DNA of 64,000 nt from Camelus ferus (Eukaryota), in contig NC_045696.1 in NCBI RefSeq assembly GCF_009834535.1, positions 59,770,001 to 59,834,000 on the forward strand, in the 5' to 3' direction. A program made the translations under genes and the position numbers. Position 1 is the first letter of the stretch, and each line of letters opens with the position of its first letter. Positions 25,988 to 63,516 of this stretch are shown here, one piece after another. The notes beneath the pieces are model-generated. The model ran no database searches. It saw only the letters and a program-made list of their open reading frames with translations, and was not told the origin of the DNA.

Positions 25988-27825
25988 ATTGCATCCAGAA
26001 AATAAAATACTTAGAAATAAATCTGACCAAGGAAGTGAGACTTTTATGTGGAAAACTACAAAACACTGTCTAAGGAAATTAAATGTGATTTAAAGAAATG
26101 GAAAGATAGTCCCATGCTCTTGGATTGGAAGAATTAATATTGTTAAATGGCCATACTACCCAAAGCAATCTACAGATTTAATGTGATGCTTATCAAATTA
26201 CCCAGGACATTTTTCACTGAACTAGAACAAATAATCCTAAAGTGTATATGGAATCACAAAAGACCCAGAATTGGCAAAGCAATACTGAAGAAAAAGAATG
26301 AAGCTGGAGGAATAACCCTCCCAGACTTAAGACAATACTACAGAGCTACAGTAATCAAAACAGCATGGTATTGGTACAAAAACAGACATAGTATCAGTGG
26401 AACAGAATAGAGAGCCTAGAAGTAAATCCATGAACTTTGGGTCAATTAATCTTTGACAAAGGAGGCAAGAACATGCAATGGAGTAAATACAGTTTGTTCA
26501 GCAAATGGTGTTGGGAAAACTGGACAGCTGCATGTAAATCAATGAAGTTAGAATACTCCCTCACACCATACACAAAAATAAACTCAAAATGGCTTAAAGA
26601 CTTAAACATAAGACAAGACACTGTAAACCTCTTAGAAGAAAACATAGGCAAAACATTCTCTGACATAAATCTCAGCAATGTTCTCCTAGGGCAGTCTACC
26701 CAGGCAATAGAAATAAAAGCAAAAATTAATAAATGAGACCTAATTAAACTTACAAGCTTTTGCACAGCAAAGGAAACCATAAACAAAACAAAAAGACAAC
26801 TGGAATGGGAGAAAATATTTACAAAAGATGAGACTGACAAGGGCTTGACTTCCAGAATATATAAACAACTCATACAACTTAGTAAGAAACAAACAACTAA
26901 ATCCAAAAATGGGCAGAAGACCTAAACAAGCAATTCTCCAGTGAAGAACTACAAATGGCCAATAGGCACATGAAAAAATGCTCAATATCGCTAACTATCA
27001 GAGAAATGCAAATCAAAACTACAGTGAGGTATCACCTCACACCAGTCAGAATGGCCATCATTCAAAAGTCCACAAATGATAAATGCTGGAGAGGGTGTGG
27101 AGAAAAGGGAACACTCCTGCACTGTTGGTGGGAATGTAGTTTGGTGCAGACATTATGGAAAACAGCATGGAGATTCCTTAAAAGATTAAAAATAGACTTA
27201 CCATATGATCCAGCAATCCCACTCCTGAGCATGTATCCAGAGGGAACCTTAATTCAAAAAGATTCATGTACCCCAATGTTCATAGCAGCACTATTTACAA
27301 TAGCCAAGATATAGAAACATCCTAAATGTCCATCAACAGATGACTGGATAAAGAAGATGTGGTATATTTATACAATGGAATACTACTCAGCCATAAAAAA
27401 GAATAAAATAATACCATTTGCAGCAACATGAATGGACTTGGAGATTGCCATTCTAAGTGAAGTAAGCCAGAAAGAGAAAGAAAAATATCATATGATATCA
27501 CCTATATGTAGAATCTTAAAAAAAGGAAAAAAGACAAACTTATTTACAAAACAGAAACAGACTCACAGACATAGAAAACAAACTTACGGTCACCAGGAGC
27601 GGAAGGGGTGGGAAGGGATAAATTGGGAGTTTGAGATTTGCAGATACTAATATATATAAAATAGATAAACAACAAGTTTATACTGTATAGCATAGGGAAC
27701 TATATTTAATATCTTGTAACTTAAGGTAAAAAAGAATATGAAAACAAATATATGTATGTTCATGTATGACTGAAGCTGTACACCAGAAACTGACCCAACA
27801 TTGTAAACTGACTATACTTCAATAA

Positions 27826-27826
<1 letters not shown>
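25988..27826 (+). mobile_element. ~1.8 kb 5'-truncated L1 (ORF2 C-terminal part plus 3' UTR), disrupted by stops and frameshifts
   Basis: ORF pieces [39 protein letters not shown] (ORF2p Cys-rich domain); AATAAA 27821-27826; decayed TSD aaaagaatatatgaaa (25972-25987) / aagagaatacatggaa (27872-27887). Confidence 0.95.

Positions 27827-27870
<44 letters not shown>
27826..27870. repeat. (TA)n(CA)n microsatellite at the L1 tail
   Basis: Direct reading, immediately after the L1 poly(A) signal. Confidence 0.9.
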
Positions 27871-56105: not shown

Positions 56106-58285
56106 GTGAACCTTTGAAGGGCACGTTGACTTTCCTAATTTAAACTTAATAAGTGCCTATTATTAGTTTATATCCAAACTCCATTTATTAACTAATCATA
56201 ATCTATTTCAAATATTAATATGATATAATAGGAACTGACACAGTTATTGGTTGGTGCTTAATTGTTGTCGAACCCCTTAGAGAAAGATGTGGCTCTTCTG
56301 ATCCTGTTTCCCAGTAATCCTGCAACCTAAGATGTCATTCCTTTCTGGAGAAGAGGGATTTGGTGGGGTGGAGGTGGGGGGCTAAGCTAGAATAGAGAGA
56401 ATAGACTAGACTTAAGGCAGACTAGTGCGTAAGTAATTTGAGGGAAAGCTATATTCAGGATTGGGTTAATGGGTTGGTTTCATGATCTTGAGCCAAATTC
56501 TTTGGTCCTTTTTGCCCTTCCAGCCCTTTCTGGTGTCCCTGTCAGACTTCCCTTGCTCTCTTGTGACCAGGAACTATATGGAGGGTCTTTTTCGCTATTC
56601 ATTCTTTCACAGGTTCCTGTTCTCCACAGTAGACTGCAGCATTTAAGAGCAGGGTCACACTGCAGAAATACACCCCGAGTTCTCACTTGGTGTCTCTTTA
56701 GTCACACTAGATGAAGTTTTTACCCTTGTTCTCTTGGAATTACACTAGATCTGAGGCTATTCTGCACAGGCCAAGTAATTCCTTTTGCTCTTAGTCCTTG
56801 ATGTCCAATGTTTCTCTGAGTTGGAGTCTCACTTGCCTTTCTCTTGGTCTCTGGAGGAGCTGACCGCTGACAGGAGGAACAGCGTCTGATGTGCTGTCTG
56901 ACCCAAGTCAGACTTCACAGGAGCTGTGTGCGTGCATCCATGGAAGGCCACCACAGGAGTGTGGAATGATTTTATCTTTTAAATCAAGCCCCACCATCTC
57001 CTTTTTTCATCAAATCCCAGAGAATCTGCTTTGTATTCCTTCAGCTCATTGGGAAAAACCGTGAACATACTTCAATTCCTTCTGAGGTCCATGGTTTTGA
57101 GCCTGGGAGAAGTTAGCCCCTTCACTCACATTCTCTCCTTTTAAATCCTCTAGCTTTCCCTTTAGCATTGGCAGGGCTTTAACTCATGGGTCAGGCTCTT
57201 ACGTAAAATTAGTAGAGCTTTTAGAGCTGGTCACTGGCTTAATATTAACCAAGGTAGAGATAAGCCTGTTTGGCTGCTGACCTTGACCCAGAGGGCAGGT
57301 GTTTCTCAGGAACAAAAAAGGAAACTGACTTATGTGTTGGGTGATGTTTGCAGTAAGGTGCAGAGAACAGTCCACATTTGCACTAAAGGGCAAGAGTTAT
57401 CACCTGAGAGTACAGCTCAGAGGAGGCCCTCTGGCCACTGTCTCAGACATAAGCATCTTCTTGTTGTGGACAGTAGGAAAAGCAAGGCTCTCCAGTAGCA
57501 TCTGTGAAGACTTGCTGGGTTAGGCTATATTCCCTCTGAAGATGTGAAGGTGTCTCTGAGAATCTGTTTAGAACTGGCAAACCAAATAGGCTCCACCTCC
57601 TAGGCTGGGTGTCCAGTGGTCTGGTAACTGGAGGCATTTTAAGGAGGATTACAGGACCCAGAAAAATATCCATCAGCTTATAAAATATGGGCACCTGTCT
57701 GTGGTACCTCAATTGGACCCATTGCTCTGCAGCAGGAAACTAAGACTGCAGAATTTCCCTATCCTGAAATAATAGAAAAGCGGGGCCCAACTCATCTGAT
57801 TTTTCGTGGTCCTGCCTCCATCACCTCCCTTGGCCACAGGTTGGTCTAGGTTCATGGCTGTGGGAGCCTCCCGGGTCCAGCCCGTGCTGCAAGGGCCAGA
57901 CAGCCACACTTCTCAGAGCTCCGAGGACGGAGAGGCCACTTCAGCCCCAGGGCTCCTTTTAATAAAAAACAAGAAGGGCCAGGATAATTCCTGAGCGTCT
58001 TTTCGGCTAAGAATTTTACCTTCCTTCTGGCGTCTTCCTGGAGTTGCTTCTTAGTGGTTCCATCGCCTTCTTTCCCTTCCCTCCAGGGCCCTGTGTGAAC
58101 AGGAAGGTGGCCACAGTCTGCCCTAGATGACTGGGTGGGTCCTGATTCAATCTCTTACTAGAACTTGAGGCTTTCGCTGTGAGGTCTGTTGTCCATGTCC
58201 CCAGAGGGGGAGGTTTTGCAACCCAGAGGGCTGTAGTGGTCTCCCCATTTTGCACTTAATTCACCCTGGCCCTCCTTTCCATCAG

Positions 58286-58471
58286 GGCACCTTGACCGCT
58301 CAGGGCAAGCTGCTCCAGCAGGACACCTTCTACGTGATTGAGCTGGATGCGGGCATGCCGTCCCGGACCAAGGAGAGGCGTGTGTTCCTCTTTGAGCAAA
58401 TTGTCATCTTCAGTGAACTGCTCAGGAAGGGATCCCTCACCCCGGGTTACATGTTCAAAAGGAGCATCAAG
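58286..58471 (+). CDS. KALRN: KALRN exon, PH2: GTLTAQGKLLQQDTFYVIELDAGMPSRTKERRVFLFEQIVIFSELLRKGSLTPGYMFKRSIK
   Basis: Acceptor cctttccatcag|GGC, donor AAG|gtgagg; 186 nt; ERRVFLFEQ motif. Confidence 0.97.
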
Positions 58472-58842
58472 GTGAGGATCCCAGTGGGGGTGAGCGGGGA
58501 CATGGAGGAGCCACACTGGGGGAGCCACTTCCCCAGGACAGAGGCACTGGCATCATGAGTGAGGATCCAGAACATTGAAGATCTTTCTGCCTAGTGACCT
58601 CTGGGCTTGGAGGTCGAATATCTGTGAGAAGGGTCAGGCTGAGTGCCAGCCTCTAACGTGATCCTACAGGTTCTCCAAGAGCGTATCATTCACTCAAAGA
58701 AACCAAAGTGTTTAAGCTATTAGATCCAGAGCGAATTTTTGGAAACATGTCCTGAAATAAAAACTTGGAGGAATTGTAATATGTTGTTGATTTTTTTTTG
58801 AATCACTTAGATATAAAAAAGAGGCAACTTGGTTTCTTCCAG

Positions 58843-59014
58843 ATGAATTACTTGGTCCTGGAAGAGAACGTGGACAATGACCCCTGCAAGTTTGCACTCA
58901 TGAACCGGGAGACTTCGGAGAGGGTCATTCTGCAAGCCGCCAATGCTGACATCCAGCAGGCCTGGGTGCAGGACATCAACCAAGTCTTAGAAACACAGCG
59001 AGACTTCTTAAATG
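58843..59014 (+). CDS. KALRN: KALRN exon, PH2 end: MNYLVLEENVDNDPCKFALMNRETSERVILQAANADIQQAWVQDINQVLETQRDFLN(A)
   Basis: Acceptor gtttcttccag|ATG, donor AATG|gtgggt; 172 nt, phase 0/1; conserved PH C-terminal helix Trp. Confidence 0.96.
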
Positions 59015-59390
59015 GTGGGTACTGGGCCTGGCTTCTAGCCAAGCCATTTCAGGGCACCCCACACCTCTGAGCCTCCTTGGGTCTGGGCTCGCAGTAAGTT
59101 CTGAGCCCCGATCACATTTATGTGATCTGAAAGCTCGGTAGCTTTCAGAAACACTTTTGTTTAGAAATTTTCTGAACCTGAATATGCAAGTGGACAGACG
59201 GGGCATGATAAAGAAATCCATCTTTTCAGAAGAAAGGGTGATCTCTCGTAGCCTCGACATAGGGGATGTGCCTTGTGGCCTCCACTATCGGCAGGTAATA
59301 ATTGGGGCAAAAGTCTGAAATGGGCACACCCTCTTTGTCTCAGGGGCCAGCTATCAATGACGTATATTTTTCCATTTGGTAACTAATGGC

Positions 59391-60060
59391 TGGTAATCTC
59401 CTAGGTTGTCTAGTGTTATCTAGAGATAACTAGGGGTTTGGCAGATCAGCTCAAATCCCTTTTTCTCCCAACAGATAGGATTGCTAACTCTCAATTTCAC
59501 TAATACCTTGAAACTTCCCAGAACAAACTGACCCGGTTACAGAGACAGGGATGAACTCTGTGGACCTGCAGGAGCACTGTGTGGCCATATGTGCTCACAC
59601 GTTGGCACGCACGTGTCCACCCGTGGGTGGGTCACTTCTTGTTATCTAGAATCTGGATTCTCTCAAATGATGCAGATAGAGCACTTGCTGGGTGTCTGGC
59701 ACAAAACTGAATGCTGTGGGGAAAGATTAAAGGTGACACACTCATTGGGGACGTTGGGCAGGTAGCGGAGTTTCTCTGGGCTTCAGTTGGCTCTTTTGTG
59801 AAAAGGAGAAACGATCTACTCTGCCCCCGGCGGGCAGGTGCCATGGAGTTGCAGCAGCTCTGGAAACAGGAAAACAGGGCACACATCCCATAGAGAGCGT
59901 CAGTCTCTGTGTAATTGTCAGTTTGTTCCGGAAACTTTTAAGGTTATTACCGAAATTGAGAGTTCGCAATCACCTCTGTTGGGAGCAAAAGGGGATTTGA
60001 GCTGATCTGCCAAACCCCCAGTTATCTCCAGATAACACTAGACAACCTGGAAGATGACCA
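59391..60060. repeat. Long imperfect inverted repeat, arms 59391-59546 and 59903-60060, ~356-bp spacer
   Basis: Manual alignment of arm 1 to the reverse complement of arm 2 gives ~22 mismatches and 2 gaps in ~158 columns, with a 27-bp perfect core GGGGTTTGGCAGATCAGCTCAAATCCC. Confidence 0.95.
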
Positions 60061-60589
60061 GGTATCAATGTGGGCCACGGTGAGGGACCTAACACATTGT
60101 GTTTATTTTAAAGCAAATAAAAAGAGATTGTGTAGCAGGATGCTTTGACTTTTTAAAATAGAACATGAGACTTCAAAGCCATTACACACTTAATGGAGAG
60201 TATTTTGGGACCATGCCCCTGATCGCCCAACTGTAAAACAGTTTGGTGAAAAAAAATAAACCAAGTAATCTCTAGGGTTCTTTCTCATTCTAAACTGTCT
60301 AAAATTAACCACAAGCCAGGCCCTGAGGGATTGTAATGAAAGTTGTATATAGTTTACACTTTCTGAGTATACAACTTTTGAATTAACGCTTGTGTGGATA
60401 AAGTAATTTTAAGCAAAAATATGTGCATATAAAATATATTCAGCAAAATGCATCCTATTGGTTAGGAATTTCTGATAGATTCTAAGCTGGAATGAGGTTT
60501 TTAAAAGTTCATTAATTCAGAACAAAGGAAAAATAAGGTAGGACAATAAACCGAAACCGGAAACAATTAATGGCTAATGTAAGTGAGTA

Positions 60590-60830
60590 AAATAATGGCT
60601 CCCATGTACTGAGTCCTTTCTCTGGGGGAGGCACGATGCTAATCATTTCACAGTATTATCACACTTAGTCCTCTCATCAACCTGGGAAGCTAAATACTAT
60701 CATCCTGTATTTTTCAAATGAGGAAAAGGAGTATCAGGGAAGTTAATAAACTTGTCCAAAGTTGCAAAAATAGTGGTTGATAGAACAAGAGCTTGAACCC
60801 AGAACTGGATGACTTGAAATTAGACTCTTA
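60590..60830 (-). mobile_element. MIR SINE
   Basis: ttagtcctctcatcaacctgggaag...caaatgaggaaa...gaagttaataaacttgtccaaagt. Confidence 0.7.
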
Positions 60831-61679
60831 CCCACAAAACTGTAGTGGTCAGGCCACTTTTGTCAATGAGACAAAGTGCGAAACAGGATCAGATGTAAGA
60901 CAGTGTGTCCATCAGCCAGATACAGACCCTGTCAGAAGATGCACGGCTTTCCTGATCCTAAGACCTAAGTTATGAAGATTGAGGCGGGTAGAAGAGTGGA
61001 GGCTCCCTATAGTGCTTATTTTAGAAGACATGCTATTTTCAAGCACGTTAGCCCAGCCATTGCATGTAATCAGGTAATGCCCCAGTTCTATACGATGGGC
61101 ATTGGTTCATCAGATCCGCTCGCTACGGCCTGCGTCACAACCCTCTGCCGTCTACTTAATACTTGGAACTGCGCTTCTTGGGCATAGTCAGTGATTCAGA
61201 CTTTTTATGGTTCCAAGAGACCTTTCACCTAATAACAGTGAATTATGGAGCTATTACTGAGCTAGCATATCAGAACCTAAATATTGAATGCTCTCCAAGG
61301 AGAAAAGTTGAGGTCTGGCTGGAGCCTATCCCATACCTTGACACACTCAAAAGAAGGATGTGATGATGGACTGGGGCCAGGCTTTTACTTATAGACACAT
61401 GTGCAGCCCACTCAGAGCCAACCTTTTCCTCCTGAGGCCTCAAATAGAAAGGAAATGTTGACCGTATCTTGAGTCCTATTGAAGTACATACCTGTTACTA
61501 TAGAGATAGCCTTATAATTGAAAACTGTCTGGGTCCCAGCCATTAAACCAATTAAATATTTGCTACAGCGAACACCAGTAGAAACAGCATAATCAGGCCA
61601 GCCCTGAAGTCACTGTTGGAGAATTTGACCTGTGTGGCTTTTGCCTGGCTGTACCTCTTTAGTACTCAGACCTTGGAAC

Positions 61680-62525
61680 TTTATCTTAAACTCAGTAAAA
61701 CAAAGCTCACATCTTTCCCTTCAAAGCAGCTTTTCTTCTGTCTCCTGAGTTCCATTGACCACTGTTCTCTCAGTCTCCAAACCCGAGCAGCCCTCGATTC
61801 TCGCCAGCTTTCCCGTCTAGGCTGTGTCAGTCTTATCTCCCGCTGGAGCCCTGGCCACACCGCACCCGCTCCGCATTCCCACGGCTCTGCTCTGGGTCAC
61901 CCAGGGCCTCTCCTCTGTTACTATCTCATGCCTCCTAATGACCCTCGCCGGTCCCTCCTCCCACCTGCTACAAGGTTAATGTCCTTCAGGCGCACCCTGG
62001 TGAGATCTGGTGAGAGCGCCTGGATTTCAAACATTCAGGTTCACTTAATTCAGTCACTTGTCATGATCTTCAGAATTAAATCAGACTCATTAGCCTGGCT
62101 TTCTAAATCTTTTAACCATGGCACCTCCAACCTCCTTAACCTGTCTCATCTTCCCTCCCTCTGCAGAGACCCATAGCCCTGTGCTCCAGGGAATCTGACT
62201 CCATCCTGTTCCCCAGACCTGCTTCACACTTGCTTCCTTCCTGCGAGCCTGCATGTCAGGGCCTGAGGGCTGGCGGTTTCTGAAGCTCTTTATTACCACC
62301 ACCGCCTTTCCCTGTGTCCACCACACACACACATCCCACAGAGCCCTCTCTCCCTTCTTTTGTACAACACTTGCCCCTCACACATGGCACCATTTTGTTT
62401 GTGCATTTTCATCACTTAGACAAAACTAAGAAGAGTTCTCAGTAGAATATACATCCCTTAAAAACAAGGGCAGTATCTTCCTCACACATCCTCACTCTTG
62501 CACAAAACCTGTACCTCATAAATGT
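61680..62525 (+). mobile_element. Degraded L2 fragment(s)
   Basis: ttaaactcagtaaaacaaagctc...cttcagaattaaatcagactcattagcctggc...ctcataaatg. Confidence 0.5.
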
Positions 62526-62581
62526 CCAAGTCCTTGGGGGATTTCCAGAGCTTGGAGTAACAGTCTGCTCTTACCCTGCAG

Positions 62582-62820
62582 CACTGCAGTCACCCATTGA
62601 GTACCAGCGGAAAGAAAGGAGCACAGCCGTGATGCGGTCCCAGCCTGCCAGGGCTCCCCAAGCCAGCCCCAGGCCCTACTCCTCTGCCCCCGTGGGCTCC
62701 GAGAAGCCCCCAAAGGGCTCCAGCTATAACCCGCCTCTGCCACCCCTGAAGATATCTACCTCCAATGGCAGTCCGGGGTTTGACTACCACCAGGCTGGGG
62801 ACAAGTTTGAGGCCAGCAAG
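62582..62820 (+). CDS. KALRN: KALRN exon: (A)LQSPIEYQRKERSTAVMRSQPARAPQASPRPYSSAPVGSEKPPKGSSYNPPLPPLKISTSNGSPGFDYHQAGDKFEASK
   Basis: Acceptor ttaccctgcag|CA, donor AAG|gtaagt; 239 nt, phase 1/0; ALQSPIEYQR is the PH extension shared by the Trio/kalirin/p63RhoGEF family. Confidence 0.96.
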
Positions 62821-62895
62821 GTAAGTGACAGCCCAATACTGCCACTCTCACCACCTTAAGGGCGCAGCCTCTGCCTACTTTAGGAAGTAGTATTT

Positions 62896-63516
62896 TGTTT
62901 TTAATTTATTTTTAATTGAAGTATAGTCAGTTTACAGTGTGGTGTCAATTTCTGGTGTGCAGCGTAATGTCCCAATCATACATACACGTACATATATTCG
63001 TTTTCATATGGTTTTTCATTATATGTTACTACAAGGTATTGAATATAGTTCCCTGTACTATATAGTATAAACTTGTTGTTTATTTTATATATAGTAGTTA
63101 GTATCTGCAAATCAACTCCCAGTTTATCCTTTCCCACCCTCTTCACTCCTGGTAACCATAAGTTTGTTTTCTATGTCTGTTGAGTCTGTTTCTGTTTTGT
63201 AAATAAGTTCATTGATGTATTTTTTTTTTTATGATTCCATATATAAGTGATATCATATGGTATTTTTCTTTCTCTTTCTGGCTTACTTCACTTAGAATGA
63301 CAATCTCCAGGTCCATCCATGTTGCTGCAAATGGCATTATTTTATTCTTTTTTATGGCTGACTAGTATCCCATTGTATAAATATACCAACTTCTTTATCC
63401 AGTCATCTATCAATAGACATTTAGGTTGTTTCCATGTCTTGTGCTATTGTATATAGTGCTGCTGTGAACATTGTGGTGCGTGTATCTTTTCAAATTAGAG
63501 TTTCCCCTGGATATAC
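62896..63516 (-). mobile_element. 5'-truncated L1 3' end, 75 nt downstream of the 62820 donor
   Basis: ttgaagtatagtcagtttacagtg...tatagtgctgctgtgaacattg; probable TSD aggaagtagtattt (62882-62895) / aggaagtagcatct (63517-63530). Confidence 0.92.

Follow-up and report, generated by a model that had tools for sequence, protein, structure and literature searches.

In Camelus ferus an intron of the KALRN gene contains a long single-copy inverted repeat, which is real and locally unusual. On balance, it is probable that the repeat arose long ago, when a piece of ordinary intron DNA was duplicated locally in inverted orientation, and that its transcript would form a predicted 157-bp duplex, edited by ADAR as a by-product and likely without a selected role. 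The repeat lies in a window of 64,000 nucleotides (the whole stretch of DNA analysed; all positions are counted from its first letter) and consists of a left arm at 59390-59546 (plus strand), a spacer of 356 nt at 59547-59902 and a right arm at 59903-60061 (minus strand), which is the reverse complement of the left one; weak inward extensions reach 59563 and 59888, respectively. The first-pass annotation of this DNA had offered two explanations, a functional editing/splicing hairpin or the inverted ends of a DNA transposon or foldback element. Local inverted duplication of unique DNA, absent from that list, is now the likeliest option.

KALRN is a nerve-cell (synaptic) gene that is linked to schizophrenia. 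The assignment of the repeat to one of its introns was upheld by tblastn searches with two kalirins, which traced a run of exons on the plus strand along the window, and by the identity of the exon at 62582-62820 to mammalian kalirins. The kalirin alignment stops at the 5' splice site ATG/GTGGGT (59012-59020, plus strand), which closes the last exon before the intron. The intron (59015-62581, plus strand, 3567 nt) begins with GT at 59015 and ends with AG at 62581, between the exon that finishes in RDFLN and the one containing ALQSPIEYQR. The latter (62582-62820, plus strand, starting LQSPIEYQRKERS) shares 89-97% identity with its 36 top matches, the named ones among them being mammalian kalirins; a PDB search with this exon gave no match. 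The donor was found, as annotated, 376 nt before position 59391. It agrees with the consensus at seven of nine positions, inside the range of 5-9 covered by 12 best-guess donors of the window, and therefore its description as weak is not supported. If the donor is read through (59015-59071), the kalirin frame stays open for 19 codons and then reaches a stop. Another donor-like sequence, ACG/GTGAGG at 60077-60085, lies 19 nt past the right arm and also matches seven of nine consensus positions (-8.8 kcal/mol with U1).

Alignment of 59390-59546 with the reverse complement of 59903-60061 gave 135 identical columns out of 159 (85%), and the local alignment extending inward to 59563/59888 gave 146 out of 172. 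The outermost 75 nt are 92% complementary and the longest perfect runs measure 27 and 19 nt, in agreement with the pairing of about 85% between 59391-59546 and 59903-60060, the outer identity of about 92% and the two perfect runs that had been described previously. Divergence between the arms amounts to K2P 0.156 (11 transitions and 11 transversions over 157 sites), with 0.076 in the outer 85 columns vs 0.259 in the inner part. This gradient has p = 0.004 at a hand-picked cut and p = 0.10 and 0.11 by permutation; being not significant after correction, it was discarded as proof of conversion or selection. The inner arm shows 10 transversions vs 6 transitions, an excess that seems odd for simple drift. 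Both arms consist of a pair of short imperfect palindromes (approximately 59415-59430 and 59433-59459 in the left one), and each arm alone folds weakly (-34 and -44 kcal/mol).

An assembly artefact was rejected because the arms differ by 15% and sequencing runs carry the sequence: all 119 sampled words were contained in 14 DNA or unlabelled runs, of which 5 (from 3 studies) are not marked as a possible source. In the 264 kb around the site there are eight inverted pairs no more than 5 kb apart at E 1e-6 or better, and the KALRN pair is the strongest of them and the only one with an arm that matches its partner alone. At similar cuts, a sample of 40 stretches of 10 kb, drawn at random from 10 other contigs and all searched, yielded four inverted pairs in total, each present in 9-30 copies in the sample, and no stretch contained a single-copy inverted repeat of this kind.

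Based on searches of the camel's own genome, the entire repeat, the arms taken singly and the spacer match at the KALRN locus only. A 24-mer with up to two mismatches had two genome hits, the two arms themselves; a 22-mer with two mismatches had three, and an 18-mer with one mismatch had four, vs eight for its control. The copy-number check that the annotation had recommended recovered both arms and no third copy. A looser 22-mer pattern produced 71 hits vs 10 for a control, whose count is probably lowered by the CG that it contains. The multi-copy family that this excess might suggest was rejected: at the 28 of 69 non-self loci that were compared, the flanks are 24-27% identical to the arm, the level of chance, and share nothing among themselves. 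A profile of both arms over 664 kb reached a best E of 0.84. The statement that the arms resemble no SINE or LINE of the window was likewise borne out, with no match as dispersed copies in the 664 kb and none to the SINE profile described below. All these counts are lower bounds, as the genome search skips common words and scores the best candidates only; it is seed-based, and therefore a very old low-copy family could be missed. The sole metagenome hit, considered as an orthologue, was dismissed as a chance match of 23 nt.

The spacer is unique sequence with a single genome hit and without significant residual symmetry; its halves score 9 against each other vs a shuffle mean of 8.6, and no symmetry was found in the outer flanks either. 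An 11-mer of the left arm (59414-59424) recurs directly at 59640-59650 in the spacer, probably by chance (a few percent). The spacer contains a decayed fragment of an old high-copy SINE (59748-59814, plus strand; 16.6 bits, E 7e-6), compared with 2.1 bits for the best of 200 shuffled spacers. The profile was grown from a repeat at 60631-60806 and trained on 141 copies elsewhere, the spacer fragment being held out. Hence the earlier statement on SINEs and LINEs holds for the arms and had missed this fragment in the spacer. The repeat at 60631-60806 (minus strand) is a well-kept copy of the same family, which we take to be MIR-type, with 100.8 bits and in the orientation opposite to that of the spacer fragment. 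Copies of the family differ by 32% from the majority sequence and by 47% on pairwise average (minimum 26% among 7360 pairs). From this comparison with the K2P of 0.156, the spacer SINE appears far older than the arms unless these were kept alike; therefore the arms are either much younger than the spacer, or equally old and homogenised. Arms younger than the spacer are what a local duplication predicts.

Both the alignment and the own-genome searches agree with the copying of neighbouring unique sequence as its reverse complement. During replication or repair, the polymerase may have changed strand (a fold-back or template switch), run backwards for about 160-170 nt and then resumed. Afterwards the arms would have drifted apart, the outer part perhaps being re-copied later. 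If neutral sites change at about 2.2e-9 per year, a K2P of 0.156 corresponds to roughly 35 million years, which would place the event inside the camel lineage, with a wide error. We infer a template-switch origin from the present-day arms.

Template switching has been reported to give rise to inverted repeats, to homogenise them and to enlarge them (10.1101/2023.04.19.537475; PMC13100816). Its products share with the KALRN repeat the intronic reverse-complement copy of neighbouring unique sequence, presumably made in one step, and later switches can raise the likeness between parts of the arms. Examples described in these sources are smaller, of 28 and up to 83 nt (10.1101/2023.04.19.537475) and with arms of 10-48 bp in yeast (PMC13100816), vs 157-nt arms and a 356-nt spacer here. 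Among the systems compared, template-switch products are nevertheless what the repeat resembles best, though these examples are several times shorter.

Folding of 59380-60070, the check proposed with the first description of the repeat, gave -356.2 kcal/mol on the plus strand compared with -213.5 +/- 5.2 for 20 shuffles (z -27); the minus strand is nearly as stable (-337.5 vs -191.0 kcal/mol, z -25). The predicted arm duplex has -217 kcal/mol, 139 of the 157 left-arm bases paired, a longest uninterrupted helix of 32 bp and 90 adenosines. Two of these, A59422 and A59432 (plus strand), are predicted ADAR-favoured sites, located in UAG and facing C60029 and C60019, as had been noted; A59422 has an unpaired probability of 1.0 within the helix. 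In human, 4,597 edited non-repetitive dsRNAs were counted, with medians of 144 bp, 30 bp of continuous helix, -184.8 kcal/mol, 87.5% paired and a 509-nt loop, compared with 75 bp, 14 bp, -44.6 kcal/mol, 75.2% and 1407 nt for the unedited ones (PMC11838218). The KALRN duplex resembles the edited class defined by dsRNAscan in its arms of about 150 bp, with about 88% paired, a longest helix of about 30 bp and a spacer of a few hundred nt, and differs from it in being known here from the sequence and predicted fold (PMC11838218). As it is close to the edited class and far from the unedited one, editing in ADAR-expressing cells is likely, in the form of passive ADAR editing. The earlier proposal of an ADAR-editable pre-mRNA duplex is thus supported as far as the predicted fold and this likeness reach. 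The nascent KALRN transcript would form the duplex, ADAR may act on many of the 90 adenosines, and splicing would remove the intron for degradation as usual. Four RNA runs from two reproductive-tract studies contain 0.73-0.80 of the sampled words, which may stem from transcripts of either strand or from carried-over DNA; two further RNA runs, with a share of 0.12-0.13, were set aside as no evidence.

Selection on the RNA would be expected to leave its mark on the differences between the arms. On the sense strand, the 22 substitutions comprise 7 A:C, 4 G:U and 11 transversions. The G:U wobbles that had been pointed out do exist, but as a minority (4 of 22, against 7 A:C and 11 transversions), and there is no G:U bias on the transcribed strand (4 vs 7, p = 0.55; small numbers). 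Three of the seven A:C sites lie in UAG, which is not predicted by the neutral model and speaks against the duplication if all three count (p = 0.005), one of them sitting in a 3x3 loop; for the two clean sites p is about 0.05, and these were picked after the fact. The clean sites would fit ordinary C-to-T change. Read on the appropriate strand, the outer differences at 59402, 59422 and 59432 are all CCAG vs CTAG, and two further differences are CG vs CA; both sets may be explained by ordinary C-to-T change in the left arm, a presumed direction. Based on the absence of a G:U bias (p = 0.55) and the weakness of the UAG sites (p about 0.05), the functional-hairpin alternative is left with no positive evidence, nor does the repeat look selected as RNA.

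Inverted SINE pairs, of the inverted Alu type, are known intronic ADAR substrates. Like them, the KALRN repeat would give a long intronic duplex, imperfect and accessible to promiscuous editing; unlike them, its arms are not dispersed repeats and the sole SINE piece lies in the loop. The editing-complementary sequences of recoding sites, e.g., the GRIA2 Q/R site, form an intronic duplex with an exon. The similarities with the KALRN repeat are an intronic duplex downstream of an exon, a neuronal gene and A:C mismatches; in contrast, both KALRN arms are intronic, with no pairing to any exon of the window. A self-BLAST of 59300-60200 against the whole window matched the arms only, and therefore, with both arms intronic and no exon pairing, codon recoding is impossible. 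LIRBase contains 4.59 million long inverted repeats in 208 vertebrate genomes, which also have two arms and a loop able to yield a long hairpin RNA; in comparison, the KALRN repeat falls far short of the vertebrate median of 7426 nt and is not made of adjacent transposon copies (PMC8728187).

A literature search found no paper on the KALRN inverted repeat; supplementary tables beyond those searched may list the human locus. Neither the main text nor one supplementary file of PMC11838218 contains KALRN, the supplements of PMC12695637, as far as accessible, gave no match to it and the accessible part of PMC3765493 holds nothing relevant to the repeat. KALRN editing has been reported at gene level only, in human brain (10.1101/485086; supplement of PMC9704047). 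In mouse, the 21 examined of the 42 Kalrn editing rows of PMC6724681 fall at chr16:34.49-34.54 Mb, not in the intron of the repeat; by the coordinates in PMC9844340, this is the 5' end of the gene. As a by-product, the KALRN duplex would add one to the thousands of long duplexes of non-repetitive sequence that a mammalian genome contains, and the repeat would serve chiefly as a clean example for dating the rise and decay of such repeats.

An unlikely alternative, though the one that survives best, is that the repeat is a selected RNA switch in which the duplex hides an acceptor-like site at 59474; opening would permit splicing to 59475 and 3'-end formation at AATAAA 60116. The products would be a kalirin that stops nine residues past the PH domain of the second GEF, by appending DRIANSQFH and then a stop according to the translation, or a stop-carrying poison exon, and editing of the AG would destroy the acceptor. 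The acceptor-like stretch (59457-59474, plus strand; a pyrimidine run followed by CAG) has 15 pyrimidines out of 20 vs 13 at the true acceptor, ranking joint fourth of the 127 YAG sites of the intron. It is predicted to be fully paired and buried in the duplex, with an unpaired probability of at most 0.002, and the best-kept part of the duplex covers the start of its pyrimidine run. The candidate poly(A) signal, the first AATAAA of the intron (60116-60121, plus strand), lies 55 nt past the right arm; an earlier ATTAAA is located at 59726, inside the spacer. In addition, KALRN uses several alternative 3'-terminal exons (PMC3048553). Against this, at least 12 other YAG sites of the intron reach the pyrimidine count of the true acceptor, a crude measure, and the intron contains four AATAAA and four ATTAAA; such sites are therefore cheap. 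Of all acceptor-like sites in the intron, the richest in pyrimidines (18/20, CAG at 62166) is located at 62140-62175, with 73 nt free of AG; it precedes the true acceptor by 415 nt and lies in what presumably is an L2 remnant.

The lack of a G:U bias on the sense strand also argues against a selected switch, as do the protein data. The motif that opens exon 62582-62820 is present in 118 of 120 proteins, and in 105 of these 118 kalirins FLNA is joined directly to LQSP; the other 13 have a different sequence before the motif, never the peptide predicted from the arm. None of the 118 carries that peptide as an insert, a search to which an isoform ending at this point is invisible. KALRN is absent from the eight supplementary files of a list of human NMD events (PMC7347940). 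The candidate end was also considered as the known Kal9 3'-UTR. This was rejected because GEF2 is encoded by exons 39-47 whereas the end specific to Kal9 comes after exon 51 (PMC3048553), and because a transcript that reads through the donor meets a stop after 19 codons. With the Kal9 end behind exon 51, an end at 59474/60116 is therefore not the known one. If true, the acceptor and poly(A) switch would be simple to probe by minigene.

About as improbable, and if anything slightly more so, is that the repeat is what remains of a DNA transposon, ancient and of low copy number, whose long terminal inverted repeats were homogenised by arm-to-arm conversion or selection and which received the SINE later. 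The arm-spacer-arm layout fits a transposon, with inverted ends of 157-159 nt, the outer arm is more alike than the inner one (K2P 0.076 vs 0.259) and very old families escape seed-based searches. Still, no own-genome search detected a third copy, and a target-site duplication was not found: only 4-mers are common to 59360-59400 and 60050-60095, where one of 2-3 nt or a decayed one is still possible. Two of the 13 stop-to-stop frames of the spacer and arms were searched and had no homologue, a weak test of a coding remnant. Moreover, arms older than the SINE should differ by about 47%, so that strong extra homogenisation would be needed, and the identity gradient that might reveal it is not significant (p 0.10-0.11). 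The repeat fails the two defining features of such elements that were tested, copies and a target-site duplication, and does not look like a transposon; the transposon or foldback-element branch of the first-pass annotation is weakened accordingly by these two results and by the host SINE remnant in the spacer.

A combined scenario, quite improbable, connects the preferred local duplication with splicing control as a lineage-specific RNA lock on kalirin isoform choice. Here a one-step inverted duplication would have buried the acceptor at 59474 upstream of the poly(A) signal at 60116; were the duplex unwound or lost, the kalirin made would terminate directly behind the RhoA-GEF domain and lack the second SH3, Ig, FnIII and kinase domains, and ADAR editing of the acceptor A would lock the site off. 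If acceptor and poly(A) control were true, a replication slip would have created an isoform switch in a schizophrenia-linked synaptic gene.

It is very unlikely that the stem serves as a source of small RNAs (miRNA or hairpin siRNA). The 32-bp uninterrupted helix would be available for cutting and young intronic stems can turn into miRNA genes, but the 356-nt spacer is unlike the apical loop of a pri-miRNA, for which a 35-bp stem and a short unstructured loop are preferred (10.1101/2023.04.19.537475). A scan of 58000-62000 with Rfam gave no family near the gathering score and two sub-threshold matches outside the repeat. Least credible of all is a fossil of ADAR-edited RNA copied back into DNA, with the arm differences as fixed edits: three differences do read (U/C)AG to (U/C)GG in the right arm on the minus strand (60029, 60019, 59929), but only 11 of the 22 substitutions are transitions, these split 7:4 between strands (p = 0.55), and a donor copy, a poly(A) tail and a target-site duplication were not found.

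Besides the KALRN repeat, the window contains a pair of 3' fragments at 62890-63513 and 27234-27833, which we assume to be L1-like, in opposite orientation and 84% identical by BLAST. Their K2P of 0.11 is near the 0.156 of the arms, and more L1-like copies are located at about 16.2-16.9, 36.4-37.2 and 46.3-46.7 kb.
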